This document shows, in pieces, positions 25,037-63,964 of a stretch of DNA of 64,000 nt. Below the pieces are notes generated by a model. It was not told the DNA's origin. It was given only the letters and a program-made list of their open reading frames with translations, and searched no databases. The position numbers were made by a program, and so were the translations under genes. The stretch covers positions 3,712 through 67,711 of the forward strand of contig JAGLYV010000078.1 of NCBI GenBank assembly GCA_023131975.1, written 5' to 3'. Origin of the DNA: Candidatus Krumholzibacteriia bacterium (GTDB lineage Bacteria > Krumholzibacteriota > Krumholzibacteriia > Krumholzibacteriales > Krumholzibacteriaceae). The first letter of the stretch is position 1. Every line of letters begins with the position of its first letter.

Positions 25037-26197
25037 TCACATCCTGTCATCTTCGAGCTGTTTTCCTGCTCCATGGATCAAGTCAAGATAGAATCTTTCC
25101 GTGCGTTCCGCGACTGAGTCCCAATTGTACTCTTCCTCGATCTTCTTTCTTCCGTGACTGCCCATCCACGAGGCCCGGCTGTCATCCAAAACGATCATCT
25201 CCCTCAATCCCCTGCCCAGATCACTTTTGTCCCCTCTTTTGAAAATCGCTCCGACCTTTCCCGCGACTTCAAGGTTTTCCGGAATATCGCTGATCAGCAC
25301 CGGTCTTGAAAAACTCATCGCCTCCATAAGTGAGATCGGAAGACCCTCTACCAGCGAAGGCAAAACGTAGAAGGCACAGTGAGCGTACAATTCATCCAGG
25401 TTTTCCCCGGCGACATATCCCGGGAATATCACCCTGTTGTCAGCGATTCCATGCAGTTTTCGCGCATATTCGACTTCAAACCTCTCGTCACCTACAATGA
25501 CGAGCTTCATGTCCGTATCGATTTCGGACCATGCTTCCAGCAGAGTATCGAATCCTCTTTCGACTATGAACCGGCCTACGGTGAGGATAAATTTCCCACT
25601 TTCGATTCCCAACCCGAGGAGGTCCCTTAGGGGTGGGCTTTCTCTGAGCGTAGCACCATTTGGAATGTAAACGACTTTCGAAGAATATCTCGATGACAGA
25701 TCCTCCGCCATCAGTTTCGATACAGCTATCGTCGCACTGGCAGACCTGACTGCTCGCGCCTCACCCTTGCGTAAAAGGTATTTTACCACCCTTCCCCACT
25801 TGCTCTGCCTGTAATCGAGAGCATGAACGGTTGAGACAGTCAGTTTATTCGCCATCACGGGTATCCCCGCGAACAGCGAAGGGCCTATCCCATGATAGTG
25901 GATGATATCAAAAGGTCCTGACAGAGCTTTCATTGTTGCTATGAAAGAGTGTGTACCCGCATCCAGATTCTTTGTGGGGATAGACGGCAGCAGTCTCACA
26001 TTCATTCCGAGATGCTCTCCGTCAATACTGAAAGGTTTACGGCCGAAAACGGTTATCTCATGCCCCCTGCCCGCAAGGCGTCTCCCTATTTCCTCGACAT
26101 GCCTTTCTATACCTCCGAATAACGCGGGAAGACCTTTCGACCCGATCATCGCTATCTTCAGATTTGAATTGCCATCTTTATTCATGATCAGACTCAT
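25037..26197 (-). CDS. GT4 family glycosyltransferase
   Basis: 386 aa with N- and C-terminal GT-B Rossmann halves (..LMEAMSFSRPVLISD.. in the C-domain). Confidence 0.8.
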   Translation of the reverse strand: MSLIMNKDGNSNLKIAMIGSKGLPALFGGIERHVEEIGRRLAGRGHEITVFGRKPFSIDGEHLGMNVRLLPSIPTKNLDAGTHSFIATMKALSGPFDIIHYHGIGPSLFAGIPVMANKLTVSTVHALDYRQSKWGRVVKYLLRKGEARAVRSASATIAVSKLMAEDLSSRYSSKVVYIPNGATLRESPPLRDLLGLGIESGKFILTVGRFIVERGFDTLLEAWSEIDTDMKLVIVGDERFEVEYARKLHGIADNRVIFPGYVAGENLDELYAHCAFYVLPSLVEGLPISLMEAMSFSRPVLISDIPENLEVAGKVGAIFKRGDKSDLGRGLREMIVLDDSRASWMGSHGRKKIEEEYNWDSVAERTERFYLDLIHGAGKQLEDDRM

Positions 26198-27192
26198 GTG
26201 ACAGAAATATCTCTTCTCAACAATAACAACAACCAGTTTTTAAGTATCCATAAAACAGGCTTTACAGGATTTCTTTTCATAGAGGCTCTGGCAGTGCAGA
26301 TCATCCAGCACGAAAGCGTACATTTATCGACTACTTTGCGGACCTTTTCCGCTTGTTCGCTCTTCCATATCTCTTCAATGGTATTTTTCGTGACATCACC
26401 CATCTCCTGTTCCAGGGTAAGACAGGGGAACACTTTGCCATTCGGATCGATGAACACGGAATCCCGCCCGGCTCTGCATCCAAGCGCCCTCCGCCCCACG
26501 CTGTTGTAATAAAGGACTCCCGAATAAAAATATGCTCTCAGCCATCGCTTCGGGCTGAAGCTCCCGAGCTCTTTCTTCATGACATACTTCAACTCATTCT
26601 CGAGTTCTCCTGGTTCGACCTGCTGATTGTCCTTTGTCGAGAAGTAAAAATCGGAGTTCTGAGCAACTGACGTAGTAAACTGGAACCCAAACTGCCTGGA
26701 CAGGTCATATACGGCTCCCAGATGCCTGACATTCTCCTTCTGCGCGGTAAAAGCAACCCTGACATTTCTGTATCCGAGTTTTTTCAGTTGCGTCAGAGTC
26801 TCGACGATCTTTTTGAATCCATCCTCGACACCTCTGATCTGGTCATGCATTTCTCCGATTCCGTCCAGTGATACTGCTATTCCGATCTTCCTGCTTATCT
26901 TCTTGAGAGAAGGCGCGGCATGGGCGATCCTTCTATTCTGAAAACCATTTGTCGATATCACGATCCGTGGATGCCCACAATGATCATATATACTACGGAC
27001 CATATCCACGATATCGTCTCGCAGGAAAGGCTCGCCCCCGGTTACATTCAGGTCATTCACGGTCGATGGAAGCTTCTTCACATCTTCGATATCGAACTCC
27101 ATTCCCGCCGGCAGCTTCCAGATATTGCACATATTGCACCTGGAATCACATCTGTATGTCACGGCCAGCACCGCGTCGAACGGCAACGCCAT
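26194..27192 (-). CDS. Radical SAM enzyme with C-terminal Cys-rich (SPASM-like) extension
   Basis: CxxxCxxC cluster motif near the N-terminus (YRCDSRCNMCN). A C-terminal Cys cluster (...CLTLEQE...CTLSCWMICTARAS) is also present. Start and stop overlap the flanking GT4 genes. Confidence 0.7.
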   Translation of the reverse strand: MALPFDAVLAVTYRCDSRCNMCNIWKLPAGMEFDIEDVKKLPSTVNDLNVTGGEPFLRDDIVDMVRSIYDHCGHPRIVISTNGFQNRRIAHAAPSLKKISRKIGIAVSLDGIGEMHDQIRGVEDGFKKIVETLTQLKKLGYRNVRVAFTAQKENVRHLGAVYDLSRQFGFQFTTSVAQNSDFYFSTKDNQQVEPGELENELKYVMKKELGSFSPKRWLRAYFYSGVLYYNSVGRRALGCRAGRDSVFIDPNGKVFPCLTLEQEMGDVTKNTIEEIWKSEQAEKVRKVVDKCTLSCWMICTARASMKRNPVKPVLWILKNWLLLLLRRDISVT

Positions 27193-27207
27193 ATCTATCC
27201 ACCCTCT

Positions 27208-28350
27208 CTATCGACCAAGACCTTCCACAAGTTCGGAATAACCCCTGATCATATTCTCCTCCGAATAATCTCTCAACACTCTTTTTCTGGCCATTTTCCC
27301 GATACCTGCCAGGAGAGCCGGATCGGACTTCAACCTGAGCAGCGTATCGGCCATGAGGATCGAATCCCCACTCGGCACCAGCATCCCTTCCTCTCCGTCC
27401 AGGAACATCTCCGCTATCGACCCGACATCAGTCGATACGACCGCAAGCCCCGAAGACATAGCCTCAAGGACAGTGAGAGGAAAGGTCTCGACGACCGGAT
27501 ATGAACAGAGTGTGGCGGCATCGGAAAGAGCGAATATCCTGTCAATATCGTCCCGCACTCCCATAAACCTGATCCTGTCCGGTTTCGCCGTTTTCTTGAC
27601 GATTTCATGCAATTTCCCTGCCTCTACACCATCCCCGGCTATTAAAAATGTGAAGTCATCGTGTGATCTGAGAAGTTTATCAGCGACATCGATAAACATA
27701 TCGTGGTTTTTTTCAGGTCTGAGAGCCGCCACGATCGTCACGACGAAATCATTTTCAGGTATCGAATACTGCCTTCTAAGTTCTTTTTTATGATCAATGG
27801 AAACCGGAGGACTGAATCTGTCCGTATCAATACCATTGGGAACCAGGATTATCTTTTCTGGAGGGATCCTCCCATCCTTTTCCAGAAATCTGGCGTGAGG
27901 AGGAGCCAGCGCGACAAATCGGTCGAACATGCGAAGAACCAGCCTGTCCGTAAAGCTGAAAGTGCCTTTCTTCCCCCATAGTCCGGTCGAATGTACACTG
28001 AGGATCCTGCTTCTTATACCTGCCATCTGTGACGCTGTCGCACCCAGCAATATCGCGTCATGATGATCCAGTACGATAAGGACGGGGTCATCGCCGACAG
28101 AAAATATCCTCTTTAACTTTGCGAAAGAGGATAGATCGAATCTTCCGCGGGCAACGCCTGACCGGAGTGTGACTCCCGCATCGATGAGCTGCTGCCCGAC
28201 ATGCCCCGGCAACCTCAGGCAGATCACTTCAACATCATGTCCATAGCGGGACATGCCTGTCGCCAGGGCCTTTATCACCATCTCGGCCCCACCCGTCACA
28301 AGGGTGGAACAGAGGATAAAGATTTTCCTCCTGCTTCGGCGAGAACCCAT
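27208..28350 (-). CDS. GT4 family glycosyltransferase
   Basis: 380 aa GT-B (ILCSTLVTGGAEMV... N-domain, EGMLVPSGD... C-domain). Confidence 0.8.
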   Translation of the reverse strand: MGSRRSRRKIFILCSTLVTGGAEMVIKALATGMSRYGHDVEVICLRLPGHVGQQLIDAGVTLRSGVARGRFDLSSFAKLKRIFSVGDDPVLIVLDHHDAILLGATASQMAGIRSRILSVHSTGLWGKKGTFSFTDRLVLRMFDRFVALAPPHARFLEKDGRIPPEKIILVPNGIDTDRFSPPVSIDHKKELRRQYSIPENDFVVTIVAALRPEKNHDMFIDVADKLLRSHDDFTFLIAGDGVEAGKLHEIVKKTAKPDRIRFMGVRDDIDRIFALSDAATLCSYPVVETFPLTVLEAMSSGLAVVSTDVGSIAEMFLDGEEGMLVPSGDSILMADTLLRLKSDPALLAGIGKMARKRVLRDYSEENMIRGYSELVEGLGR

Positions 28351-28361
28351 GGTATTCCCTT

Positions 28362-29000
28362 TTATATGTAAGGGGCTTCCCTGCGTCCCTGTTTGCAGCG
28401 CAGATCCTTCAGGTCTTCGTGGACCCTGGCAGGATTGCCATAGGCGAGGACTCCCGGGGGAAGGTCCTTCGTCACAACGGACCCGCTGCCGACAAGCGTA
28501 CCCTCACCGATAGTGACATATGGTACGACCGTAACATTGACACCGATCCTGCATCCCTTTTTAAAGACGGGCCCCCTCATGCAGTCACCAGAGTCGGGAC
28601 ATCCGGGATGAATGTCGTTCGCCACGGTGACTCCAGGCGCCATAAAGACTTCATCCTCGATCACGGTAAACTGGGCTATGTATATATTGCAGTGGATCTT
28701 GACGTTGTGGCCGATAGTACATCCGTAATCGATCACCGAATTATTCCATATATTAAAATGGTCGCCGATAGTGTTTTCTTCCCTGATAATGACATTGTGG
28801 CCCGTCTCGAGCCCCTTGCCTATCTTCGACCCGGCATAGATGACGCTTCCGCTTCGTATCCTCGCGCCCTCGCCGATTTCAAGGAGTTCACTGACATTTC
28901 GCCTTGGTGACAGGTAGCCCACTATGGCTTCCGGGTCGATATCAGCCCCGGCTCCAAGACGCAGTTCACCGAGTTTCCTCGGATTGATTAAAGGATCCAT
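28362..29000 (-). CDS. Left-handed beta-helix (hexapeptide) sugar N/O-acetyltransferase (WbpD/PglD-like)
   Basis: 212 aa with repeated [LIV]-G-x-x-x-x hexapeptide units (IGHNVKIHCNIYIAQFTVIEDEVFMAPGVTV...). Confidence 0.75.
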   Translation of the reverse strand: MDPLINPRKLGELRLGAGADIDPEAIVGYLSPRRNVSELLEIGEGARIRSGSVIYAGSKIGKGLETGHNVIIREENTIGDHFNIWNNSVIDYGCTIGHNVKIHCNIYIAQFTVIEDEVFMAPGVTVANDIHPGCPDSGDCMRGPVFKKGCRIGVNVTVVPYVTIGEGTLVGSGSVVTKDLPPGVLAYGNPARVHEDLKDLRCKQGRREAPYI

Positions 29001-29016
29001 CTGAAACCACCCTGAC

Positions 29017-30042
29017 TTACTTTAAGGCTTTCGGGTATTCTATTTTGATCTCCGTACCGGCAGCAGCCATCGATCTGTCCGCTGCATCAAGCACCAGCAG
29101 TACTTCCAGCCCGTGTTTTCCACTGCTTCGTGACGCTGTTCCGTTTATGCAGTCGATGAAATGCTGGCACTCTATCTTCAGTGGTTCCGCATCCTCGAGC
29201 TTCGGAATCGAGATATCGCCATACCTGTACGCAAGCTGGAACTCTCCGAAGGTGTCATAATGTGGTATGACGTCTACACCCTTGTCATAGATACGGATCT
29301 TTTCGAGACTTGCGATGTCATCATAAACAAGCATCTTCTTACTGCCGACCACGGTTGTCGCGCGGATCTTGTTCGGATTCAGCCAGGATACCTGAAGATT
29401 CGCGAGAATAGAGCCGGGGTACCGGAGCGTCAAAAAGGCTACATCCTGAATGTCGGGTTGTATGTAGGAATGTCCTACGGCAGATACGGCCACAGGCCTG
29501 GATTCGAGGATGTAATTCATGATGGAGACATCATGAGGGGCAAGATCCCAGACCACATTGATGTCCTCCTGGAACAGGCCCAGGTTGACGCGGGATGTGG
29601 ACATATAGTAAATGTCACCAAGGTCGCCTGCCTTGATAAGATCCCTGATCTTGTTTACAGCAGCGGTATATACGAATGTGTGACCTACCATCAGGGTACG
29701 GTCTGCCTTCTCCGCCAGCTCGACCAGCTTGACTCCTTCTTCAACTGTGCGTGTAAGAGGTTTTTCACAGAATACGTGCTTTCCGGCTTCGAGAGCTTCC
29801 GAAGCTATGCCGGCATGAGTAGATACAGGCGTTGCAATGACAACGGCCTCTATCTCGGGGTCGGCAATGATAGTCTTGTAGTCTGTGGTGGTCTCAAGGG
29901 ACGGGTACAACATTTTCATGTGGTTCAGGCGATCTTCAGAAAGATCGCTTGCCGTCTTGACTCTGGCGTCCTTCAGGTTGATGAAGTTCCTGATGAGGTT
30001 TGGACCCCAGTATCCGCATCCGATCACTCCTACAGTCAGCAA
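29017..30042 (-). CDS. Gfo/Idh/MocA-family NAD-dependent sugar oxidoreductase (WbpB-like)
   Basis: N-terminal Rossmann motif VGVIGCGYWGPNLIRNF and EKP motif (CEKPL). Confidence 0.75.
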   Translation of the reverse strand: MLTVGVIGCGYWGPNLIRNFINLKDARVKTASDLSEDRLNHMKMLYPSLETTTDYKTIIADPEIEAVVIATPVSTHAGIASEALEAGKHVFCEKPLTRTVEEGVKLVELAEKADRTLMVGHTFVYTAAVNKIRDLIKAGDLGDIYYMSTSRVNLGLFQEDINVVWDLAPHDVSIMNYILESRPVAVSAVGHSYIQPDIQDVAFLTLRYPGSILANLQVSWLNPNKIRATTVVGSKKMLVYDDIASLEKIRIYDKGVDVIPHYDTFGEFQLAYRYGDISIPKLEDAEPLKIECQHFIDCINGTASRSSGKHGLEVLLVLDAADRSMAAAGTEIKIEYPKALK

Positions 30043-30057
30043 TGTGCCTCCATTCGT

Positions 30058-30795
30058 TTAAAGTCCCCCTGTGCCGGCGAGCATCACAGGTATCGTCCTG
30101 AATATTATCTTCAAGTCCATGGCGAGAGACCAGTTCTCTATGTAATAGAGATCCAGCTTGACCATCTCGTGGAACGGGACGGTACTCCTTCCACTGACCT
30201 GCCAGAGGCCTGTCAATCCAGGCTTTACTTTCAGCCTCAACTTGTGCCATTCATCATACTGCTCATACTCATACCCAAGTGGCGGCCGCGGGCCGACGAT
30301 AGTCATCTCACCCTTGAGTATGTTGATGAACTGCGGCAGTTCATCAAGACTGGTCCGCCTCAAAAACCCGCCAAGGCCGGTTATCCGCGGATCATGGGAT
30401 ATTTTATATAGATTACTTTCCTGGCCGTCAAGTGATGATTGCGACATCTGGCCCTTGATGAAATTCTGGGCAAACTCCCTGTGGATCGAATCGTCATTGT
30501 CGGGACGCATGGTCCGGAACTTGAAAAAGGCAAAAGAACGCCCATTTTCCCCGATTCTCTGTTGCTTAAAGAAGACGGAGCCTCTGGACGTTATCTTGAT
30601 AAGCACAGCAAGGGCGAGAAAAAATGGGAACCCTATCATTAGAACACCCAGTGATACGCCCACATCTATGAAACGTTTGACAAATCTCTGCGCAACGCCC
30701 CGCTCCCGTATGGCGAACGAGACACCACCGTCAAGTCGTTCCTCATGCTGCTCAATCTTGATGTCACTGTCCAGGGCCAGTGATAACTTTCTCAT
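30058..30795 (-). CDS. Small initiating phosphoglycosyl transferase (PglC/WbaP C-domain-like bacterial sugar transferase)
   Basis: A single N-terminal re-entrant helix, then ...KFRTMR...DPRIT..G.FLRRTSLDELPQFINILKGEMTIVGPRP. Confidence 0.8.
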   Translation of the reverse strand: MRKLSLALDSDIKIEQHEERLDGGVSFAIRERGVAQRFVKRFIDVGVSLGVLMIGFPFFLALAVLIKITSRGSVFFKQQRIGENGRSFAFFKFRTMRPDNDDSIHREFAQNFIKGQMSQSSLDGQESNLYKISHDPRITGLGGFLRRTSLDELPQFINILKGEMTIVGPRPPLGYEYEQYDEWHKLRLKVKPGLTGLWQVSGRSTVPFHEMVKLDLYYIENWSLAMDLKIIFRTIPVMLAGTGGL

Positions 30796-30880
30796 AGCTG
30801 AACTGTCCCGTCTCAGTTACCGACTAAACTTATGTCTTTAACCGTTAATCTATATGCCCCCTCCTTGTTAAAGACCTCTC

Positions 30881-31987
30881 TTATGTCTGATCGATAGTTC
30901 TTAACACCTCACAGACACGATCGACTTTATCCAATGCGAGTTCCGGAAACATCGGAAGAGTGATGCTGGTAGTCATCAATTTTTCTGATACCGGAAAATC
31001 TCCACTTGAATAACCCAGGTGCAAAAATGCTGGTTGCAGGTGGATGGGGACCGGATAATGCCGACCCCACCCTATATCTGCGTCAGCAAGTGCCTTACCG
31101 ACAACCTGCTGGTCTTTACACCCCAGCGCGAAAAGATGATAGACTGGCTCGCAATCCTTGCTTTCTGCGGCCATCCAATACCCTGTATCCTTCAGACCCT
31201 CGTGATATCTCTCGGCGAGTGCCCTTCTTTTTTCATTCCATCCGTCCAGGTATGCCAGTTTCACTCCCAGAACTGCCGCCTGGATTGCCTGAAGCCTGTA
31301 ATTATAACCTAGCTCTGTGTGCTCGTTTTTAACGATCTGACCGTGATGCCTGAGCCCCTTCATGCGTCTTACCAGTTCCTTGTCATCGGTAGTGACAGCA
31401 CCACCCTCCCCGAAAGACCCCAGGTTCTTGCTGGGATAAAAGGAGAATGCAGCCGCATGGCCGAGTGATCCGGCTCTTCTTCCTTTATATCTGGCACCAT
31501 GGGCCTGACAGGAATCCTCGATCACCTTGAGCCCATGTTTCTCCGCGATCTCCATAATCGAGTCCATATCGCATGGCTGACCGAAGAGATGCACGGGGAT
31601 TATAGCCTTTGTCTTGTCTGTAATAGCAGCTTCGAGTTTCGATGGGTCCATAAGCGCGGTGTCTTCAAGGACATCGATCAGGACAGGCTTTACGCCGATC
31701 ATTCCGATCGCCTCGACGGTAGCGATAAAAGTGTTCGCAACCGTGATCACCTCATCGCCCGGTCCAATCTTGAATCCAAGAAGAGCAAGTACAAGAGCTG
31801 ATGTACCACTGCTCGTCCCGGCACAGTATTTCGTGCCGCAATAATCCGCAAAATTCGCTTCGAACTCTTCGAGCCCCGGACCAAGCACAAACGCCGTTTT
31901 ATCGATCACTTTCTCGATAGCAGCATCGACTTCGGCCCTTATCGTCTGTGTTTGCTCACTAAGGTTGAAAAACGGTATCTTACCCAT
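30881..31987 (-). CDS. DegT/DnrJ/EryC1/StrS-family PLP-dependent sugar aminotransferase (WbpE-like)
   Basis: 368 aa with DegT-family N-terminus (IPFFNL...) and motifs (..FYPSKNLGSFGEGGAVTT..). Confidence 0.8.
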   Translation of the reverse strand: MGKIPFFNLSEQTQTIRAEVDAAIEKVIDKTAFVLGPGLEEFEANFADYCGTKYCAGTSSGTSALVLALLGFKIGPGDEVITVANTFIATVEAIGMIGVKPVLIDVLEDTALMDPSKLEAAITDKTKAIIPVHLFGQPCDMDSIMEIAEKHGLKVIEDSCQAHGARYKGRRAGSLGHAAAFSFYPSKNLGSFGEGGAVTTDDKELVRRMKGLRHHGQIVKNEHTELGYNYRLQAIQAAVLGVKLAYLDGWNEKRRALAERYHEGLKDTGYWMAAESKDCEPVYHLFALGCKDQQVVGKALADADIGWGRHYPVPIHLQPAFLHLGYSSGDFPVSEKLMTTSITLPMFPELALDKVDRVCEVLRTIDQT

Positions 31988-32473: not shown

Positions 32474-32517
32474 TCTGATACCTGTCACCCATGATTACGC
32501 TCACAAAGGAGCCTGAA

Positions 32518-32973: not shown

Positions 32974-32989
32974 CAACGGTGGTTCACCG

Positions 32990-33853: not shown

Positions 33854-33898
33854 AAAGAGATTTCCCGTTTTTCCGAGCACCCGCCATCCCCGGGATGC

Positions 33899-36803: not shown

Positions 36804-36830
36804 AAGATTTTTACGACACAGGTATCTCTC

Positions 36831-53074: not shown

Positions 53075-53079
53075 TATCT

Positions 53080-53868: not shown

Positions 53869-53988
53869 TTCACCTCTCATATCTCTAACCATGACACTCG
53901 ACCCTGCTGAATCTGTAAGTCGGCGCAAATCTACCTGTTTAGGTGTAATTTGTCAAACAAGAATTAGGGCAAGATACATGCCAGAACG

Positions 53989-56200: not shown

Positions 56201-56285
56201 TCGATTTGGATCAATAGCTGTTATAGTATTATGGTCCGTTATAATACTTTGACGATGGATTAATAATAAGAATGGAGATGTCATA

Positions 56286-58007
56286 ATGGTATTGCCTCTT
56301 TCGCCCTCGCTGGTAAGAAATGTCATATATCCCGTGTACAGGGGGTTTAGGGGAGACAGGCTTTTATCGACCCTCAATGAGTTGGAGAAGAACCAGTGGC
56401 TCTCGCTCCCCGAGATCGAGGATATCCAGTGGCGACGAATGAGTTCTTTCCTCAAAGAGATAACAGCCCACGTCCCCTATTACATGGATATTTTCAATGA
56501 ACTGGGGTTGAAGCCCGGGGACATTCAGAATCCGAACGATTTCATGCAATTACCTCTACTGGATAAATACGTAATCCGCCAGGAAGGCAAGCGGATGGTG
56601 ACCAACGATCCCGTGAAAAAGGGATACAAGGCGAGTACGGGAGGATCGACAGGAGAACCGCTCTATTTTTCCAATGACCTTTCCGCAGCTCCTATTCGGA
56701 GAGCGAATACCGCGAGAGGACACAGAATGGCCGGAATCGACATCGGTGATAAGCAGGCCTTTGTCTGGGGCTTTCCATTCGACATTCCACTCAAGGAGCG
56801 GATGGCAAGCACGGTCAGGAACTATTTTGCCAATATCACCTACCTTTCATCTTTCAATCTTTCAGAAAAAGCGATGGCGGATTACGCGGCGAAGCTAAAG
56901 AGGTACAAGCCGGCCCTTGTGATCGGATACCCTTCGGCCGTAACCTTCTTTGCCGAATTCCTCCGTATGAGGAATATTACCGGAATCCGGCCAAAAGCGG
57001 TCATCTCAAGTGGGGAAAAAATGTTCCCGCAGCAGAGAGAAACGCTCGAAGAAGTCTTCGGGTGCAGGGTCTTCGACCGCTATGGCAGTAATGAAGTCGG
57101 GAATGTCGCTCATGAATGCGATCAGCATAAGGGCCTTCATATATTCTCGGATCTTATCTACCTCGAGATACTCAGAGAAAACGGCCGTCCAGCCGAACCG
57201 GGCGAAGTAGGAGAACTTGTTATTACTGACCTGCTCAACCATTACATGCCGTTCGTCAGGTACAGGACCGGCGACATGGCAATCCTCAGCAGCAGGACAT
57301 GCGCATGCGGCAGGGGTCTACCGCTTCTCGAGCGGATAGAGGGCAGAACCTTCGACAATATAATGACTCCCGACGGACGGTCGATTGGCGGATACTTCTG
57401 GACTTATCTCTCAAGAGTGGTTCCAGGAATAAAGCAGTTCCAGGTCGAGCAAAAGCAACGAAGCTCCCTGGTCTTTAGAATTGTCCCGGGACCGGACTGG
57501 AACGACTCGTACAAGGAACGACTCATCAGCGAGATTAGCGAGAACATGGGCGAATCGGTCAAGGTAAAGATCGACAGGGTCGATGAGATTCCGCTCACTC
57601 CGGCGGGTAAGTTCAAATTCATCATCTCGAAGGTCGAGGAAAGACTCGTAGTTAAGTCAAAGATCCACAAGGCTGTCGTGACCAGAGTTGATCCGAACCA
57701 CATCGACTGCGTGATCATAGACGAGGATGTTCTCGAGATGAGCAACATAGCTCCCTGCGAAAGGGTCCTTATTGTCGACAACACCAATGGCGCAAGAGTC
57801 GAAACATTTGTCCTGAAAGGGAAAAAGGGAAGCGGAGAGCTGATATCCTGTGGAGCGGTAAGCAAACAGATCCACGATGGGGACGAGATAATTCTCATGG
57901 CTTTTACCTGGTCGGAAGAGACGCACGACCAGTTCACCAATATTCTTGTCGACGAAAAGAACAGATTCGTCCGTTACCTGACAGAAAAGGCGGGCGACAA
58001 GATCTAG
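56286..58007 (+). CDS. CapK/PaaK-like adenylate-forming enzyme fused to a C-terminal PanD-like (aspartate-1-decarboxylase fold) domain
   Basis: Residues 1 to about 450 are PaaK-like (STGGSTGEPL P-loop, etc.). Residues about 457 to 573 align across the full PanD length (KxH, TNGAR, GSGxLIxCGA, GDEIIL.AF). See the matching finding for the substituted catalytic residues. Confidence 0.6.
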   Translation: MVLPLSPSLVRNVIYPVYRGFRGDRLLSTLNELEKNQWLSLPEIEDIQWRRMSSFLKEITAHVPYYMDIFNELGLKPGDIQNPNDFMQLPLLDKYVIRQEGKRMVTNDPVKKGYKASTGGSTGEPLYFSNDLSAAPIRRANTARGHRMAGIDIGDKQAFVWGFPFDIPLKERMASTVRNYFANITYLSSFNLSEKAMADYAAKLKRYKPALVIGYPSAVTFFAEFLRMRNITGIRPKAVISSGEKMFPQQRETLEEVFGCRVFDRYGSNEVGNVAHECDQHKGLHIFSDLIYLEILRENGRPAEPGEVGELVITDLLNHYMPFVRYRTGDMAILSSRTCACGRGLPLLERIEGRTFDNIMTPDGRSIGGYFWTYLSRVVPGIKQFQVEQKQRSSLVFRIVPGPDWNDSYKERLISEISENMGESVKVKIDRVDEIPLTPAGKFKFIISKVEERLVVKSKIHKAVVTRVDPNHIDCVIIDEDVLEMSNIAPCERVLIVDNTNGARVETFVLKGKKGSGELISCGAVSKQIHDGDEIILMAFTWSEETHDQFTNILVDEKNRFVRYLTEKAGDKI

Positions 58008-58031
58008 CGGTGGAAGGATACCTAAGAAACC

Positions 58032-59213
58032 TCACCAGGGCCTTATGGGTATCTTCGCCAGGATTTTCAGTATCAGTCGAGGAGGAGTCCACAGGTTCAA
58101 AATCTTTTCAAGACAGATCCTGCCCATGTCGTCCATCCGCATCTTAAGATGAGCCAATAAGGTACCTGATTCACACCCGGCACGTATTCGGGTATTTTTG
58201 TTCTTTCTACGCAATCCCGGCCAGTCCACCGACTGTTTTACATCCTCAATGGTGACTGGACGCGATTCGAGGCTGCTGCTGGAAAGGGTCAGAAGTTCCC
58301 TCCCCCTTTCACTGTGTACAATCACGAGAGAAAGACCTCCACCCACTTCACCGGAACGGACTATATTCCACGGATCAGCCACAGTGATATCCGCGCCCGC
58401 CCCCATGGGATTCGGGCAGAGCCTGCAAGCAGGCAGCGTCCAGAGACCTTTCCCGAAGGGAAGAGCCGCAGCATCGGCCCACTCAATCGTACGGTCCTCT
58501 ATCTCGATCTTGCCCGGCCACCCTTTCCCGCGGTACGACACCTTGCCCTCACCCTCACGGTCCAGTCCCATTCGTCCGCGCATAAAGCGCGTAAACCCCT
58601 CGTTTTTTTGCTGCTTGCAAAAAACTCCGATCATGATGAGATCATCGCGTTTTCCCCCGTAGAAATTGTCCAGAGCGATAAGTTGGCAATTAGTGCCCAC
58701 GACAATCAACTTCCCTTCGCGGGGCCGGGAAAACTCGAGGTTCTCCAGTACCGGGACCGGTCGATAGGTCGAGTTTGCAAAGTCTTCCACTCGAAACCCC
58801 CGGGAAACATATCCACCCTTCACCCATGGGAAAAAAGTATCGTCGACAAGGCAGTAAGCCTCATCAACGATACCGGTATTGAGGGCAGATTCGATAAGGG
58901 TACGGATCACTCCACCCGATGATGAGTTACGTCGCCGGTCCGGATCGGTCGAGTGGCTGAGCCATGAGGAAGCGATCGAAGTCCATGACATTTCCTTCCA
59001 GGGATTAGCTGACAGGAGAGGAACGGGACATATCCTGACGCAGAGACCACAGGATATACAGCTCGCTTCATCCCAGATTATCCTGAATCGGCCATCTTCG
59101 ATCCAGTCGCGCGAAAGAGCTCCCGATGCACATCCTGCGAGGCACGCGCCACACTGGCAACAGCGATCGACTTCGAAATGGATCTTATCATCCTTACCGT
59201 ACGAGATCATCAA
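58032..59213 (-). CDS. FrhB/FdhB-like Fe-S flavoprotein (pyruvyl-transferase-associated type)
   Basis: 2x[4Fe-4S] motifs (CCQCGACLAGC; CISCGLCVRICP) followed by an FrhB-like body. Overlaps the upstream pyruvyl transferase by 20 nt. Confidence 0.65.
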   Translation of the reverse strand: MMISYGKDDKIHFEVDRCCQCGACLAGCASGALSRDWIEDGRFRIIWDEASCISCGLCVRICPVPLLSANPWKEMSWTSIASSWLSHSTDPDRRRNSSSGGVIRTLIESALNTGIVDEAYCLVDDTFFPWVKGGYVSRGFRVEDFANSTYRPVPVLENLEFSRPREGKLIVVGTNCQLIALDNFYGGKRDDLIMIGVFCKQQKNEGFTRFMRGRMGLDREGEGKVSYRGKGWPGKIEIEDRTIEWADAAALPFGKGLWTLPACRLCPNPMGAGADITVADPWNIVRSGEVGGGLSLVIVHSERGRELLTLSSSSLESRPVTIEDVKQSVDWPGLRRKNKNTRIRAGCESGTLLAHLKMRMDDMGRICLEKILNLWTPPRLILKILAKIPIRPW

Positions 59214-60477
59214 GACGCTCCATAGACTGACGGACGTGGCTCTTTTTTTCTTCTATTACATTCGACAGGTGGTCTTTCCATCGTTGTCTTTCAAGCCACA
59301 TCCTGTCGAAAGCTCCCAGTGTCCACTCCGCGGTGAACTCCTCGATGTCGACCGAGAACTCCTCGAGCCCCAGTGACCTCATGTATTCGCGCACCTTAAA
59401 AAGGTAATTGACAGATATAGTCGGCACACAGGCGCCCGTTGAAAGGATGCAAGCGTGCATCCTGGTGGTGATGTTAAGGTCGGAGCAGGCTAGCATCCCT
59501 TTCAAAGCTGCTGGTGTAGGGAGCTGCTCTATGACCAGCACTTCCTTAGCAAGCTTCATCCTGCTGCGGATCTCCAGAGAGGTAGCCAAATCGTCCTCCC
59601 TGCAGCCATGGACCGGGTAGTTGGTCGGATAGAGGACAATTCTGACTCCGTATTCCGATATTAACGAATCGGCCAGCAAGGCCATCTCATCCAGATAGGA
59701 CTCGTAGTTGCTGAATTCGGTCTCGATCCTGTTCCGGAAATAACTCCAGCGCATCGCCGAGATTCCGACAATACTGTCGTTTTCATCCGCTCCGATAATC
59801 TGCAGTGCTTCTTCCCGCGGGATCCATTCCTGAAGAACAGCCATGTCGATAGTCTCGACAAGATTGGTGGCATCATCCCCTGTAAGTACGCGGGTCGCTT
59901 TCGTCGACTCTTCATCTCTCGTGTATATAAGGTCGACACTTTTCAGGACAGGCCTGGCAAGCCGCTTCGACCATCCAAAAATGAATGGACCGATCGTCGA
60001 CGGAAATATCACCATCTTTTTCCCCAGTTTCCGTACAAGGGAGAGAGTGTACAAGGAGAATACCACGTTTTTGAAGAACTTGTCGTTTATACGCTCAGCA
60101 CCAACACTTATCACCAGGTCAGCATCTATGAATGCAGCAAGTTTTCTGGCGAAGGGAACCTTTCCCCTGTCGATAGAGGATTGCGGGAGCACCGATACCG
60201 CCGTCATACAGACAGTCATCCAGAAGGATGTCTTTAAAAGCCAAAAAATCTGCTTGAGCCGAGCTTGAAGGAAGGGATATTCGAAGATGTCTTTTATTGT
60301 CTCGATTCCATAAAGGTCATGAAAAACTTTCGGAACATGAGCCATGACCTTTATCGTGCTTCCTGGAAAGCGTTCTCTCAGCAGCTTTATTGCGTTCTCC
60401 ACAAGCGCGCAGGAACCGACATTCGCGTCAGTGTATGCCTCGATAATCAAAATATTCAAAATCTCTTTATTATTCAT
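59194..60477 (-). CDS. Polysaccharide pyruvyl transferase (CsaB/WcaK family)
   Basis: 427 aa. The N-terminus NILIIEAYTDANVGSCALVENAIKLL is typical of PS_pyruv_trans. It is classically paired with an FrhB-like gene. Confidence 0.65.
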   Translation of the reverse strand: MNNKEILNILIIEAYTDANVGSCALVENAIKLLRERFPGSTIKVMAHVPKVFHDLYGIETIKDIFEYPFLQARLKQIFWLLKTSFWMTVCMTAVSVLPQSSIDRGKVPFARKLAAFIDADLVISVGAERINDKFFKNVVFSLYTLSLVRKLGKKMVIFPSTIGPFIFGWSKRLARPVLKSVDLIYTRDEESTKATRVLTGDDATNLVETIDMAVLQEWIPREEALQIIGADENDSIVGISAMRWSYFRNRIETEFSNYESYLDEMALLADSLISEYGVRIVLYPTNYPVHGCREDDLATSLEIRSRMKLAKEVLVIEQLPTPAALKGMLACSDLNITTRMHACILSTGACVPTISVNYLFKVREYMRSLGLEEFSVDIEEFTAEWTLGAFDRMWLERQRWKDHLSNVIEEKKSHVRQSMERLDDLVR

Positions 60478-60489
60478 ATCCCTTTTCTG

Positions 60490-61602
60490 TCACCTGTCCA
60501 TTTTCCCTGCCAAATGTGGTATTTGTTCAAACAGGTCTTCGTAAAGGGGGACGATTGATTCGATCCCAAAACGTTGCTGCGCTTTTTTTGCAATACTGCC
60601 TCTGTCAAACATGAAGTCCCCTGCCTTTTCGATGCTGACAGTCAATGCCTCAATGTCGCCGGAAGGAACAATGTGACCATTCTCGCCTTCCTCGATGAGT
60701 TCGTCGATGCCTCCAGGACATGCAAAGGCGATCACGGGACATCCCAGGGACAACGCTTCAACGAGGACATTGGGAAACCCCTCATATCTGGAACTAAGAA
60801 CGAAGGCAGCGGCGTGGCGAACAAACGGATAGGGGTTCGATACAAAGCCGTGAAATATTATTCTATCGTCAATTCGAAGTTCTCGCGACCGCGCCTCGAG
60901 CGAGCCTTTTAGTCCGCCTTCACCGAGAATATGCAGGTAGATTTCAGGGTCGCGTACCTTTGCCATCGCATCCAGGAGCATGTCGAACCCTTTTTGCGGA
61001 TGGAGGCGTCCCATAGCCACGATGTTTACCTTACCGATAGAGAAGCTTTCAGGACAGTCTCCGGCAGCTTGATCAATGATCCTGCCGGTGTCGGCAGGAT
61101 TGTTTATCGTGACTATCCTTTCCAGAGGAACATGGTATGTTCTGTGGACGTCACCTCTCATGTCATTTGACTGGCAGATGATCCGGTCCAGATACCGATA
61201 AGAAAGCCTATACATCCATGGGGCGTTCCAGAAACTTTTGGCAGTCGAGATCCTCATCGAAGGGATACCGCTTTCTCTGCCATAATAGACAGGATCTGCT
61301 TTCCTTACCATGAGGCGGGAAAATCCGAGTACCATATTCATGTAACATATAGTCCCTATGACAACATCCGGACGCACAGTGTCAATCAGCCCTGGCAGAC
61401 GAAAAAATGCGCCGGCCAGACTGGTCCGCATATCGTAAAGTTCTATATCTTCGGAAAGATCCCGGAGGAATACTCCTTTTTTTCTTAATAGAGCCAGATG
61501 GATCGAGAACCGCCGCCGATCTATGTTGTTCATAATGTGAACAAATACTCTCTCGGCTCCTCCTCCTTCCAATGTCGGGATACAGAAAAGAACTTTTTTC
61601 AT
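60490..61602 (-). CDS. GT4 family glycosyltransferase
   Basis: MKKVLFCIPTLEGGGAERV..., with a C-domain EALSLGCPVIAF. Start at the internal ATG. Confidence 0.8.
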   Translation of the reverse strand: MKKVLFCIPTLEGGGAERVFVHIMNNIDRRRFSIHLALLRKKGVFLRDLSEDIELYDMRTSLAGAFFRLPGLIDTVRPDVVIGTICYMNMVLGFSRLMVRKADPVYYGRESGIPSMRISTAKSFWNAPWMYRLSYRYLDRIICQSNDMRGDVHRTYHVPLERIVTINNPADTGRIIDQAAGDCPESFSIGKVNIVAMGRLHPQKGFDMLLDAMAKVRDPEIYLHILGEGGLKGSLEARSRELRIDDRIIFHGFVSNPYPFVRHAAAFVLSSRYEGFPNVLVEALSLGCPVIAFACPGGIDELIEEGENGHIVPSGDIEALTVSIEKAGDFMFDRGSIAKKAQQRFGIESIVPLYEDLFEQIPHLAGKMDR

Positions 61603-61606
61603 CGTA

Positions 61607-62824
61607 TCAGATCTCACCCCACCCACTTGGCGAAAGGAGGCTAAGAATGACATATTTTAACTTGTATGCCCTCAACTTCCATAATGCCGTTGTTTCTCCG
61701 TTGAAAAGTCTCAATATGTTGAGGAAAAATCCAGGATCGGTCCTGTGGATCAGACGGCCCTTCCAATGCCATGGTGCTCCACACCCCGTCCTGTTAATCT
61801 CTTTCGGGTCCTCACCGTAAAGATTTTTCCTTCCTTCGGCCTGGAAAAGAGAAGTCGTGGCGAGGTATCCCAGCTCCCCGGCCAGGTCGAAAAGTCCCTG
61901 GTTCATCCCGCCTCCAGGCCAGCATAGGTAATCGACCCGCCTCCCGAGTGATTCCTCGAGTATCCTTTTTGAATCTGCCAGTTCGGATCTGACTCGCGCG
62001 GCGAATTCCGCATCCGTCTCGTAGCTGTCCGCCGCACGCGGGCTTTTACCGGCGATCGTCGACAGCTGCTCGCGCCAGTCGTTTCTATTGAAAAAATCGG
62101 CACTGCCGTTTTCGCTTACGTAATCGGCGAGCTTTGAATCTAGACTCTGGTCCTGGAAATATTTTTTCGTGACAAGTGATTTTCCATGTTCATAGACCGG
62201 GGTTCCGTAAGGGATTCTGTCTTCCAGCCGCGCGCTCATGTATTCGTGTTTCCTGTCGGGCATCCTGTTCCACGAGAGCCATGGAGGAGGATTGTAACCA
62301 TCGACTCCGGAAGGCCTGTGAAAATCGATTATCCGGGGGCCGTTGAAATACCATGTATGTGTCGCCGCGTGGCTCTGGATTTCGATCGCCCCGTCCTCCT
62401 CCATCTTTCTCATTTCGCATATGGAGAGAAAACCGCGGTTCTCAAGTTCCTCCACCGACAGGTCTCCGTTCCACACGTCATCGAGGGTAGGGCGCGGAAT
62501 CGGAGAAGGGTCGATGAAATCGGTCGTCATCCAGACAACCGCTTTGTGCCCGTATTTCCTGATGAGAGGAAAGGCGTATGTCCAGTTGTTCAGGTAACCA
62601 TCATCGAATGTCAATATGAAGGGGTTTTCCGGAAGGGAAACATTATCCTTCATGTGGGCATGCAACATATTGAGGGTAATCGCGTTCCAACCACGGTCCC
62701 TGAGTATCCTCATCTGACCCTCGAAAACATCGTGCCGCACGAAGAGGTGCGGCCATAGCCATCCTGGAACGGCGGGACCGACCCCATGATACATAACAAC
62801 AGGTATACCTTTAATTCTCATCAC
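61607..62824 (-). CDS. Polysaccharide deacetylase (CE4/NodB homology) family protein
   Basis: Has the LTFDDGY motif (FILTFDDGYLNNW) plus downstream His motifs. About 405 aa, like the EPS-locus deacetylase subfamily. Confidence 0.7.
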   Translation of the reverse strand: MMRIKGIPVVMYHGVGPAVPGWLWPHLFVRHDVFEGQMRILRDRGWNAITLNMLHAHMKDNVSLPENPFILTFDDGYLNNWTYAFPLIRKYGHKAVVWMTTDFIDPSPIPRPTLDDVWNGDLSVEELENRGFLSICEMRKMEEDGAIEIQSHAATHTWYFNGPRIIDFHRPSGVDGYNPPPWLSWNRMPDRKHEYMSARLEDRIPYGTPVYEHGKSLVTKKYFQDQSLDSKLADYVSENGSADFFNRNDWREQLSTIAGKSPRAADSYETDAEFAARVRSELADSKRILEESLGRRVDYLCWPGGGMNQGLFDLAGELGYLATTSLFQAEGRKNLYGEDPKEINRTGCGAPWHWKGRLIHRTDPGFFLNILRLFNGETTALWKLRAYKLKYVILSLLSPSGWGEI

Positions 62825-63016
62825 GCGGGTCGCTGCTCCAGTTATTGTTCATGACTCCTTATAATCTACAGTACGCAAATTGCCGCAGTAAAATCAAGTA
62901 GATAGTCCAGCCATGCGCCCAACAACCTTCGTTTCAGCTGATGAAAAGAAGGTTTTGAAGACCTGTCCTGAAATAATATGGATCAGAAAACCCGGTAGCA
63001 GTAAAGATAAGTGGTT

Positions 63017-63964
63017 CTATGACATAAGAGCTGAATACAGTATCGGAATAAGGATCTCGTGATGTCCCGTGATAGCGATCGAGCGCCCTCCGAACGATGC
63101 CGGGCGATTCAGGACATTTTCTCCCGGCCTGTAATGCTGAACCATGTCGAGGTTGCAGGTCGTTATCCTCGAGAAGGATGCCCCCTTGTTTCTCGCCACG
63201 CTGAAAGCCTTGAGAAATACCTCAGGAAGGATCACGGCAGATCCGGCATTGATCACTGTTCCTCCCTCAAGGCCCAGACTCTCGACCCGTCCGCAGAATA
63301 TCCTGAAATCCCTGTATGAAAGCCCTCCCCATGCTGAGCCGTCATATGACGGATGCTGGTTTATGATATCCGTGCCGATCGCGATATGGACTGTCACCGG
63401 AATATCATGCTCGTATGCTGACGCAAAAAGGCTCTTGTCGCGATTCGGAGCTTTTTTCCGGCTGATATACCTGCCGATCGCCTCCCCCAGTCCCAGGCCC
63501 TCAACGACACCATCATCAACGGCTTCGGCAAGAAGCGCCGCGGTCTCTTCAGTAAAACCGAATATTCCTTTCTTGAGATTCTCGGCTACATCCTCGGAAG
63601 TCTTCCCGAAAAAGGCGATCTCGATATCATGTATAGCGCAGGCTCCATTTACGGCAAGAGAAGTCATGAGACCATTCTTCATCATCTCGATCAGATATAG
63701 AGGGAGTCCACATTTGATCACGTGAGCTCCGATCATCCAGATGATCTCCTGATTTTCGGAAGAACGTGCTTCTTCCATCGACTTTACGATCTCCTTTATC
63801 CTGCTGCCGGCAAGCTGGTCGGGCAGCGAATCGAACCATTCCCTGAACCCGCTGCTGCCCTTGATCGGTTTTCCATAGTCATTCAGGGATACCTTGCTCG
63901 TCCTCTCAACAAACGGTATTGTCCGAATTCCCGAAAAGTCCGACTCCTTATATTTACCTGTCAT
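63017..63964 (-). CDS. Deoxyhypusine-synthase-like family protein (uncertain)
   Basis: The pattern IIWMIGAHVIKCGL...LMTSLAVNGACAIHDIE and later ...DIPVTV..., ...GTVINAGSAV... resembles the DHS-like fold. The assignment is weak. Confidence 0.35.
   Translation of the reverse strand: MTGKYKESDFSGIRTIPFVERTSKVSLNDYGKPIKGSSGFREWFDSLPDQLAGSRIKEIVKSMEEARSSENQEIIWMIGAHVIKCGLPLYLIEMMKNGLMTSLAVNGACAIHDIEIAFFGKTSEDVAENLKKGIFGFTEETAALLAEAVDDGVVEGLGLGEAIGRYISRKKAPNRDKSLFASAYEHDIPVTVHIAIGTDIINQHPSYDGSAWGGLSYRDFRIFCGRVESLGLEGGTVINAGSAVILPEVFLKAFSVARNKGASFSRITTCNLDMVQHYRPGENVLNRPASFGGRSIAITGHHEILIPILYSALMS

Follow-up and report, generated by a model that had tools for sequence, protein, structure and literature searches.

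The described systems closest to the locus reported here are the exopolysaccharide (EPS) loci associated with XrtA and PEP-CTERM proteins (Haft et al. 2006, PMC1569441), which it resembles in carrying a TIGR03015-type ATPase inside a module of Wza, polysaccharide co-polymerase (PCP), ATPase and bacterial tyrosine autokinase (BY-kinase). The NCBIfam models of this set are TIGR03013, TIGR03027, TIGR03007, TIGR03018, TIGR03015, TIGR03006, TIGR03088 and TIGR03109, and the zooglan-type cluster is one such XrtA/PEP-CTERM-associated EPS locus (cited in bioRxiv 10.64898/2025.12.21.693542). In Sphingomonas sp. LM7, promonan is made by a Wzy-dependent EPS cluster (prm) in which PrmE, an AAA+ ATPase encoded between Wza and Wzz/BY-kinase, was described as required for promonan production; the cluster listing given for prm shows no exosortase gene (PMC11340318).

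The sequence of this genome covered here was the window, that is, the whole 64-kb stretch of DNA analysed, with 10 kb on each side of it (84 kb). Positions 25037-63964 were probably a patchwork of sugar-related gene clusters around a conserved capsule/EPS cassette of about 15 kb, which occupied 39986-54738 and 63017-63964 on the minus strand (Table 1). The cassette genes were ordered as initiating phosphoglycosyl transferase (PGT), short Wza, PCP, AAA ATPase, BY-kinase, ANT-like nucleotidyltransferase, phosphodiesterase, Wzx and GT2, followed by the small EamA protein, the 882-aa membrane protein and the GT4s, and were collinear in every one of the 38 species-level relatives; the cassette is conserved among uncultured Krumholzibacteria generally. 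The ATPase was the most conserved cassette protein (median identity 79% over 41 species-level loci), and the medians for the other proteins were 78% (GT2), 67% (PGT, 63-74% across 28 related loci), 58% (BY-kinase), 51% (PCP), 47% (Wza), 43% (the GT4 at 41206-42351, which was kept in relatives), 37% (882-aa protein) and 33% (nucleotidyltransferase). Gene spacing and one consensus promoter match, a sigma-70-like site at 54868-54839 ahead of the PGT as first gene, suggested the operon structure of the cassette. Synteny in the relatives identified the GSU2086-family gene as the conserved neighbour directly upstream, and the gene for a DUF3108 protein came next, just outside the window end.

Table 1. 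Features of the region, with profile scores in bits (score/cutoff where a cutoff is given)
Feature	Position	Strand	Evidence or content
Second PGT sub-locus	25037-31987	minus	aminotransferase, second small PGT, Gfo/Idh-type dehydrogenase, hexapeptide acetyltransferase, GT4, radical SAM/SPASM, GT4
Sub-locus GT4s (glycan-type)	25037-26197, 27208-28350	minus	
Sub-locus PGT	30058-30795	minus	TIGR03025 285/295.55; TIGR03013 156.5/393.35
rml-type (dTDP-rhamnose pathway) genes	32491-34627	rmlC-like cupin plus, rmlD plus, rmlA minus	cupin weak, 53.6/155.75; rmlD 235.7/224; rmlA 248.6/360.65 (its top match)
Trehalose block: DUF5752, TreT, OtsB, OtsA	34882-39109	plus	DUF5752 274; TreT 404.8; T6PP 74.6; OtsA TIGR02400 522.8
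TreT (trehalose synthase)	35559-36803	plus	
N-terminally truncated GT4 remnant	39254-40015	plus	last ~50 of 170 positions of Glyco_transf_4 N-domain profile
Cassette GT4s (glycan-type)	39986-41209, 41206-42351	minus	Pfam GT4 domains; TIGR03088 158 and TIGR03087 112, both below cutoff
882-aa membrane protein	42361-45009	minus	~15 transmembrane segments, ~350-aa C-terminal soluble domain
Small EamA-like protein	45052-45420	minus	Pfam EamA 29.6; four hydrophobic segments
GT2 polyprenyl-phosphate sugar synthase, DPM/AglJ/PpgS-like	45461-46141	minus	TIGR04182 121.7, NF041391 103, both below cutoff
Wzx-type flippase	46154-47656	minus	Polysacc_synt_3 55; Polysacc_synt 46; fourteen hydrophobic segments
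Alkaline-phosphatase-superfamily phosphodiesterase	47659-48918	minus	Pfam Phosphodiest 49.6
ANT-like conserved protein	48800-50065	minus	nucleotidyltransferase fold resembling aminoglycoside nucleotidyltransferases
BY-kinase	50066-50830	minus	TIGR03018 121.2/230.65; TIGR01007 99.8/108
TIGR03015-type ATPase (ExeA-like, AAA_22)	50859-51704	minus	TIGR03015 321.0/324.5; AAA_22 98
PCP, PCP-2b type	51710-53074	minus	weak TIGR03017, TIGR03007 and Pfam Wzz matches
Short OPX/Wza lipoprotein, Poly_export + SLBB	53080-53928	minus	TIGR03027 118.4/180; EpsY 78.7; Pfam
Initiating PGT, small Bac_transf form	53989-54738	minus	TIGR03025 287.7/295.55; TIGR03013 187/393.35
Accessory GT4 (glycan-type)	55031-56200	plus	
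CapK-like ligase fused to PanD-like domain	56286-58007	plus	
FrhB-like Fe-S protein	58032-59213	minus	
Pyruvyl transferase	59194-60477	minus	
Accessory GT4 (glycan-type)	60490-61653	minus	
CE4 deacetylase	61607-62824	minus	PgaB N-terminal domain 97 (top match)
GSU2086-family protein	63017-63964	minus	NF052581 387.7/250

The Wza-PCP-ATPase-BY-kinase block described in the sequence-only reading of this DNA was confirmed gene by gene. The ATPase aligned to positions 1-268 of the 269 positions of TIGR03015, 3.5 bits under the curated cutoff, and matched no other NCBIfam model; its close homologues reached 323-327 bits. No domain other than AAA was seen in the 281 aa of the protein; its Walker A (GEVGVGKTT) and Walker B (LIIDEAQ) motifs were intact, and the translated sequence had no evident hydrophobic stretch. 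The Wza had 282 aa with a single N-terminal hydrophobic segment and, judged by its length, appeared to be without the outer-membrane-spanning C-terminal domain; no beta-barrel partner for it was identified in the cassette. The PCP, whose position was kept in all relatives, was predicted to hold two transmembrane segments around ~360 periplasmic residues, and the BY-kinase, encoded apart from it, showed a Walker A motif and, at its C-terminus, a short cluster of tyrosines (YY..Y). Models of the XrtA set were the top NCBIfam matches for Wza, BY-kinase and four of the six glycan-type GT4s, all below cutoff, with TIGR03088 at 112-200 bits (cutoff 409) and TIGR03007 at 28.9 bits (cutoff 278.85). 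Since these remaining models scored well below cutoff, the case for homology between the entire module and XrtA loci rested mainly on the ATPase and the gene order. The cutoffs of TIGR03027, TIGR03007 and TIGR03018 discriminate poorly outside Proteobacteria, because the Wza of the exosortase-A-linked locus L062 also fell under its TIGR03027 cutoff (154.6 against 180). Among the models that the sequence-only reading had put forward, TIGR03015 was matched narrowly under its cutoff, and TIGR03007, TIGR03018, TIGR03006, TIGR03013 and TIGR03088 were well under cutoff or unmatched.

Both initiating transferases of that reading stood, with TIGR03025 scores (285 and 288 bits) slightly short of the cutoff; TIGR03013 aligned with the C-terminal catalytic domain only of each. 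The Wzx flippase was likewise recovered. Seven intact GT4 genes were reached only if TreT was counted; six were of glycan type, and the truncated remnant began 144 bp past the otsA stop codon. Two C55-P-sugar synthases do exist, but one lay inside the region (the cassette GT2) and the other outside it at 20405-21265. The ANT-like nucleotidyltransferase and the phosphodiesterase were conserved candidate tailoring enzymes; the true start of the latter was probably the methionine of MSKKVLII near 48786, and the phosphodiesterases of relatives had 376-379 aa. The small four-transmembrane EamA-like protein was a candidate flippase for a polyprenyl-phosphate sugar. The 882-aa protein gave no Pfam, NCBIfam or PDB match, and its AF2 model was unusable (pLDDT 42). 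Its family had 366 representatives among 1.84 billion proteins, a few of which matched DUF6541, DUF1616 or DUF6077. It could be guessed to be a GT-C-type transferase or a polymerase, and together with GT2 and the EamA-like protein it probably forms a three-part periplasmic glycosylation or polymerisation module.

The segment 54879-63001 was a strain-specific insertion of 8.1 kb, missing in the closest relative, L085, and in the other relatives; L085 aligned to window positions 64000-63002 and 54878-40857, and just 64 bp separated the two blocks. The CE4 deacetylase, which had been called of the EPS-locus type, sat in this insertion and gave no TIGR03006 match, so that the label was not retained. 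The trehalose block stood outside any glycan-assembly locus. The enzyme set of the left sub-locus suggested a diacetamido-sugar-primed glycan, and neither its genes nor the rml genes occurred in the 10-kb cassette flanks of relatives. Glycan genes crossed both borders of the region: LPS-core genes lay beyond 64000 on the right, and a GT2 and a flippase-like protein (19410-21265) lay on the left. The left flank of the window held housekeeping genes. The insertion, the trehalose and rml-type blocks, the second PGT sub-locus and the LPS core were separate or accessory units around the cassette.

To search for exosortases, an HMM was built from those of nine outgroup loci, including the seed L062, whose exosortase reached the XrtA cutoff (TIGR03109.2, 223 against 208 bits). 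At E<=10 no match was found in the window, where every stop-to-stop ORF of 60 aa or longer was searched, or in L001, L002 and the 43 Krumholzibacteria-type loci (596 kb), and no exosortase was found in this genome between -61 kb and +23 kb relative to the ATPase (the window with its 10-kb flanks). Exosortase families were also absent from the profile matches of every large ORF scanned. PEP-CTERM tails were sought in 9715 ORFs from the window and all loci with a regular expression (not TIGR02595) that combined a PEP motif at the C-terminus with a hydrophobic stretch and a basic tail. This returned two spurious outgroup matches and none in the window, and no TIGR03006-, TIGR03016- or TIGR03019-type gene was found in the window's glycan region. 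The earlier statement that the 64 kb hold neither exosortase nor PEP-CTERM substrate was thus borne out. Any inference of an exosortase partner was not, as an exosortase was detected beside the cassette in none of the 43 Krumholzibacteria-type loci versus 9 of the 39 outgroup loci. Four ATPases within 10 kb of a detected exosortase, all from other phyla, scored 284-297 bits on TIGR03015, below the 321.0 bits found here. In the exosortase-bearing outgroup loci, Wza (~6.2 kb), ATPase (10.0 kb) and BY-kinase (~11.1 kb) lay on one strand, the divergent exosortase was 3-6 kb upstream of Wza by coordinates, and the gap between Wza and ATPase presumably contained the PCP, which gives the order seen here. 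The exosortase-type resemblance noted in the earlier reading was accordingly real, because the ATPase outscored these four exosortase-linked ones and the Wza-ATPase-BY-kinase order was common to those loci, although all other XrtA-set models stayed under cutoff. In predicted protein sequence and in order, the four-gene export module is homologous to the module beside exosortase A in other phyla. As the module occurs without a physically linked exosortase in this lineage, a role in polysaccharide assembly or export would be the best reading of the ATPase, which should not be taken to indicate protein sorting.

A Wzx-dependent capsule or exopolysaccharide is the most likely product of the cassette, in which the PGT, Wzx, PCP, BY-kinase and OPX of the Wzx/Wzy-dependent pathway were all present. 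Undecaprenyl phosphate would be primed by the small PGT, the repeat unit would be assembled by GT4 enzymes at the cytoplasmic face, and Wzx would flip it across the inner membrane. Polymerisation and hand-over would be governed by the PCP-2b protein, the separate tyrosine autokinase and the TIGR03015-type AAA ATPase, and the short Wza-type OPX would carry the polymer toward the outer membrane. No Wzy_C or O-antigen-ligase match was found among the ORFs examined for Wzy, in which the 882-aa protein was the sole unassigned polytopic protein. A different view is that this is a genuine XrtA/PEP-CTERM system with its exosortase and substrates elsewhere in the genome, the cassette polysaccharide being the partner of sorted PEP-CTERM proteins. 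Such a system would account for an ATPase score at least as high as those of exosortase-linked ATPases, for the shared module order and for the name "XrtA/PEP-CTERM system-associated ATPase" carried by several close homologues in NCBI records. Linkage of exosortase and EPS genes is also not obligatory, since in Sphingomonadales genomes exosortase/PEP-CTERM systems occur irrespective of one particular EPS cluster (bioRxiv 10.64898/2025.12.21.693542). We nevertheless consider it unlikely, given the absence of exosortases around this ATPase and in the 43 loci, the lack of genuine PEP-CTERM tails in the sequences searched and of the accompanying gene types in the window's glycan region, and a literature search in which no report joining Krumholzibacteria and exosortases was found.

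The ATPase might instead be a generic type II secretion GspA/ExeA that has strayed into an ordinary Wzx/Wzy capsule cluster and has no glycan role, an outcome that the sequence-only reading itself had raised. JGI calls many of the homologues "general secretion pathway protein A", and Pfam sees generic AAA domains only. Against these names stood the end-to-end match to TIGR03015 and to no other NCBIfam model, the short length without a transmembrane segment or peptidoglycan-binding domain, the absence of type II secretion genes from the 84 kb, and a slot between PCP and BY-kinase that was fixed in all 38 loci for the best conserved cassette protein. These data supported a TIGR03015-type assignment and made a stray secretion ATPase extremely improbable. 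The 39-kb megalocus proposed earlier, whose product would be one highly branched, decorated polymer or two commonly controlled polymers, was in keeping with dense glycan genes throughout, two PGTs with one Wzx, and rml-type genes that could supply a cassette sugar. This proposal was hard to sustain and has little probability, because unrelated trehalose genes lay mid-region, the strand changed several times, conservation was limited to 15 kb, 54879-63001 was missing in the closest relative, the left sub-locus and rml genes were missing from the cassette flanks of relatives, and glycan genes continued past both borders. We therefore favored a conserved capsule/EPS cassette within a patchwork. 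Beyond this, it is a tentative proposition, somewhat doubtful when all its parts are taken jointly, that Krumholzibacteria lack exosortases entirely, that the TIGR03015 ATPase is an obligatory exosortase-independent third partner in the export machine of PCP-2b, BY-kinase and short OPX, and that the lineage-specific nucleotidyltransferase-phosphodiesterase pair stands for a glycan modification not described before, and the 882-aa protein for a new class of polymerase or GT-C.

GtrA/GtrB/GtrC and ArnC/ArnEF/ArnT are three-component periplasmic glycosylation systems. The cassette was similar to them in its consecutive genes for a GT2 synthase, a small four-transmembrane protein and a large polytopic membrane protein, but the large protein here matched no GT-C or Wzy family and could be the missing polymerase instead. 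The short Wza was like the short class 3 OPX of the composite OPX/beta-barrel export system EpsY/EpsX of Myxococcus xanthus (PMC9601211, PMC9603273, PMC12819527), and its 282 aa and EpsY score were consistent with an OPX without its own outer-membrane pore; in contrast to EpsY/EpsX, no beta-barrel partner was identified, and the OPX class was judged by length and domains. The prm cluster, likened by gene content, also places an AAA+ ATPase gene beside those for Wza, Wzz and a separately encoded BY-kinase, but its listing includes a recognisable Wzy and a beta-barrel of the outer membrane, and neither was found here. Compared with XrtA loci, no exosortase, EpsI, TIGR03006 deacetylase, FemAB-like protein, TIGR03016 barrel or PEP-CTERM protein was in view, the PGT was of the short form, and every score but that of the ATPase was far under cutoff. 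The nine outgroup loci in which an exosortase lies no more than 10 kb away nevertheless shared the module order of the cassette, to which the Krumholzibacteria have added the nucleotidyltransferase, the phosphodiesterase, the GT2/EamA pair and the 882-aa membrane protein.

The ORFs of the window were listed and scanned against NCBIfam and Pfam, and the region that the sequence-only reading had described as one glycan megalocus of about 39 kb was found to consist of five units (table below). The genes listed in that reading were present at their places with four corrections, and the observation was largely right. The framing as a megalocus was abandoned, since unrelated genes interrupted the region and glycan genes ran beyond both of its borders. 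The count of seven intact GT4 genes was reached only when TreT was included. Both polyprenyl-phosphate sugar synthases existed, but the second lay outside the 39-kb region. The CE4 deacetylase, taken to be of the EPS-locus type, gave no match to TIGR03006 and was most similar to the N-terminal domain of PgaB (97 bits).

Positions of the features in the window
Feature	Position	Strand	Content
Housekeeping genes	1 to ~17 kb		xseA, folD, RNase Y, pheST, IF3, dnaK, CCA enzyme
Block before unit 1	17.4-21.3 kb		FrhB-like protein, methyltransferase, flippase-like LPG_synthase_TM protein, GT2 polyprenyl-phosphate sugar synthase
FrhB/FdhB-like Fe-S protein	17410-18711	minus	
Genes between this block and unit 1			three tRNA genes, glgA, galT, rlpA
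Unit 1	25037-31987	minus	GT4, radical SAM/SPASM protein, GT4, hexapeptide acetyltransferase, Gfo/Idh-type dehydrogenase, small PGT (TIGR03025, 285 bits), DegT-type aminotransferase
Radical SAM/SPASM-type protein	26194-27192	minus	
Unit 2	32491-34627		rmlC-like cupin (53.6 bits, weak), rmlD (above cutoff), rmlA
Unit 3, trehalose block	34882-39109	plus	DUF5752, TreT, OtsB, OtsA
Unit 4	39254-54738	plus, then minus	truncated GT4 (plus); on the minus strand GT4, GT4, 882-aa protein, small EamA-like protein, GT2 polyprenyl-phosphate sugar synthase, Wzx, alkaline-phosphatase-family phosphodiesterase, 421-aa protein without matches, BY-kinase, AAA ATPase, PCP, short Wza, second small PGT
Truncated GT4	39254-40015	plus	
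882-aa protein	42361-45009	minus	
Insertion relative to closest relative	54879-63001		8.1 kb
Unit 5	55031-62824		GT4, CapK-like ligase/PanD-like fusion, FrhB-like Fe-S protein, pyruvyl transferase, GT4, CE4 deacetylase
CapK-PanD fusion	56286-58007	plus	573 aa
FrhB/FdhB-like Fe-S protein	58032-59213	minus	
GSU2086-family protein	63017-63964	minus	
DUF3108	about 63954-64850		9115-10011 of the right-flank locus L001

To the left of the window were xseB, ispA, dxs, NAD kinase, and recN, and to the right came DUF3108 and then a cluster of LPS-core genes that includes four GT9 genes, genes of the RfaE type, and a putatively MsbA-like ABC exporter. The product of the last window gene was found in identical form on DAOVNZ010000001.1 (282 kb; GCA_030629965.1), where the record coordinate equals the window coordinate plus 116329. 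Where the ATPase recurred in NCBI records with the same or nearly the same sequence, the label was Candidatus Krumholzibacteria or Krumholzibacteriota. A consensus scan gave 35 promoter-like sites (21.3 ± 4.5 in shuffles) and 24 terminator-like sites (17.4 in shuffles), both only modestly above the shuffles, and a single promoter-like site, upstream of the PGT, was used.

The ATPase of unit 4 (281 aa), which carried Walker A and Walker B motifs, matched positions 1-268 of 269 of TIGR03015 (“XrtA/PEP-CTERM system-associated ATPase”) with 321.0 bits, against a curated cutoff of 324.5. No other NCBIfam model matched, and Pfam gave AAA domains only. The protein is no generic ExeA of a type II secretion system. 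To calibrate this near miss, 80 loci were fetched from species-representative genomes through an alignment of ATPase homologues. Among them, 41 were of the Krumholzibacteria type (ATPase identity of 71-86%) and 39 were outgroup loci (42-50%) from Myxococcota, other “delta” lineages, Omnitrophota, Rokubacteria, Spirochaetes, and Sphaerotilus. The four exosortase-linked ATPases that were scored reached 284-297 bits on TIGR03015, below the ATPase of the window.

Comparison of the window proteins with all loci by tblastn, together with the precomputed neighbourhoods of two relatives, revealed a conserved cassette with the fixed order DUF3108, GSU2086-family protein, PGT, Wza, PCP, ATPase, BY-kinase, 421-aa protein, phosphodiesterase, Wzx, GT2, EamA-like protein, 882-aa protein, and GT4. 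This order was collinear in all 38 loci with at least four of these genes (38/38). Median identities differed sharply from gene to gene: the ATPase was the most conserved protein of the cassette in this phylum-level clade (79%), followed by GT2 (78%), EamA-like protein (69%), PGT (67%), BY-kinase (58%), Wzx (53%), PCP (51%), Wza (47%), 882-aa protein (37%), and 421-aa protein (33%). The ATPase always had the co-polymerase on one side and the tyrosine kinase on the other. In loci L005-L045 its identity was 71-86%, versus 40-67% for the neighbouring PCP, Wza, and BY-kinase, and it dropped sharply to at most 50% in the nearest homologues outside Krumholzibacteria. In the cassette flanks of relatives, tblastn found neither the left sub-locus nor the trehalose genes, and it found an rmlA homologue in one locus only (L011). 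The GSU2086-family protein scored 388 bits (cutoff 250). It was always paired with the DUF3108 protein immediately upstream of the cassette PGT in relatives. Here, as in the closest relative, the pair stood between the cassette and the LPS-core genes, and its neighbours in locus L003 were instead PhoU and a phosphate ABC transporter.

TIGR03015 ATPases are without an established function, and their name rests solely on co-occurrence with exosortase A. A membrane protein of one outgroup locus (L062:102-1022) was an exosortase A (TIGR03109.2, 223 bits; cutoff 208), and an HMM seeded from it detected exosortases in 9 of the 39 outgroup loci. The same HMM gave no match in the 43 loci of the Krumholzibacteria type (the 41 plus L003 and L004; 596 kb), nor in the window or its flanks, as the sequence-only reading had noted for the 64 kb. 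The exosortase-linked outgroup loci had the order divergent exosortase, Wza, gap, ATPase, BY-kinase, which was also the order in the window; the gap presumably holds the PCP. L062 was high in GC with unreliable ORF calls, and neither a PCP nor a BY-kinase was retrieved from it. Because Wza missed the TIGR03027 cutoff even beside an exosortase (154.6 versus 180), the other XrtA-set models below threshold were weak evidence either way. The cassette could not be filed as an XrtA/PEP-CTERM system, since the defining exosortase and substrates were looked for and found nowhere in the sequence covered. The literature search found nothing on TIGR03015 and no link of Krumholzibacteria to exosortase, and the ATPase was not discussed by Haft 2006 (PMC1569441). 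Since the ATPase was conserved, fixed in place, and never beside an exosortase in these relatives, the sequence comparison suggests that it acts in polymerising or exporting polysaccharide, not in protein sorting.

The 882-aa protein contained about 15 transmembrane segments and belonged to a small family (366 representatives at E≤1e-3 among 1.84 billion proteins) without a Pfam model; Pfam searches of 38 members gave only DUF6541, DUF1616, and DUF6077, in a few distant members. An invariant motif, D166..D169-H170...D199-x-R201-K202, lay in a periplasmic loop, and a conserved soluble domain was present at the C-terminus. PDB sequence and profile searches found nothing, and an AlphaFold (AF2) model from a 5-sequence alignment was unusable (pLDDT 42). 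Its gene comes directly after those of the polyprenyl-phosphate sugar synthase and a small protein with four transmembrane segments, so the 882-aa protein may be a periplasmic transferase resembling the GT-C type. It could instead be the polymerase, as the region contained no recognisable Wzy. PDB sequence and profile searches gave nothing usable for the ATPase, DUF3108, the GSU2086-family protein, or the nucleotidyltransferase-like 421-aa protein.

The closest relative, L085 (GCA_019038625.1; ATPase 98% identical), aligned to window positions 64000-63002 and 54878-40857, two blocks that only 64 bp separate in it, so the intervening 8.1 kb of the window are an insertion, which carries the CE4 deacetylase, the pyruvyl transferase, two GT4 genes, and the CapK-PanD fusion. 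A mobile-element origin was not supported, because the borders showed no direct or inverted repeats of at least 9 bp and no GC shift. In the fusion, which lies in this strain-specific segment, a CapK-like adenylate-forming ligase (AMP-binding/CapK_C; DVU_1553 family, 157 bits) was followed at the C-terminus by a domain like PanD, the aspartate decarboxylase (Pfam Asp_decarbox, 88.9 bits, residues 454-561). The fusion might link the making of a substituent derived from an amino acid with the step that ligates it to the glycan. The second of the two FrhB/FdhB-like Fe-S proteins (58032-59213) overlapped the start of the polysaccharide pyruvyl transferase, and the first adjoined the methyltransferase, LPG_synthase_TM, and GT2 genes before unit 1. 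The radical SAM/SPASM-type protein between two GT4 genes of unit 1 matched the PTO1314 family best (90 bits, below cutoff), and rmlA was likewise a best match below cutoff (248.6 versus 360.65 bits, NCBIfam scan). The trehalose block is unrelated to glycan assembly. Two trehalose routes, TreT and OtsB/OtsA, adjoined in it, and the DUF5752 gene preceded treT and overlapped its start by 4 bp, which suggests a tie to trehalose synthesis. The truncated GT4 started 144 bp after otsA, lacked roughly the first 120 residues of the N-terminal domain, and is probably a rearrangement remnant where the conserved cassette ends; its homologues in relatives were convergent to the cassette end.

In the proposed mechanism, the PGT would prime the lipid carrier, the GT4s would assemble the repeat unit, and Wzx would flip it, while PCP-2b, BY-kinase, and the TIGR03015 ATPase would govern polymerisation and export via the short OPX. 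In class 3 OPX systems, the OPX needs a β-barrel partner (PMC9601211, PMC9603273, PMC12819527). By analogy the short OPX of the cassette should need one as well; none was identified, and DUF3108 is a candidate outer-membrane partner. The most useful point is that an exosortase-named ATPase was the best-conserved part of a cassette with no exosortase in the surrounding sequence. This is also a first gene-level description of the conserved surface-polysaccharide cassette of this uncultured phylum, set apart from strain-variable accessories, although practical consequences are modest as the pathway type is already well known.

The core belongs, as a lineage-specific member, to the class of Wzx-dependent polysaccharide loci with PCP-2b, BY-kinase, and OPX. 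The type of export module is shared with the exosortase-A loci of other phyla. In 21 outgroup loci (among L053-L084) a WecA/MraY-type transferase (TIGR02380, 107 bits) directly followed the ATPase and BY-kinase, so the initiating enzyme class there differs from the Bac_transf PGT of the cassette. In Sphingomonas LM7, the AAA+ ATPase PrmE, encoded between Wza and Wzz/BY-kinase, is required for the production of promonan (PMC11340318). PrmE, which may belong to the same family, provides the single genetic result on such an ATPase, and the role in polymerisation or export suggested here is in line with it.
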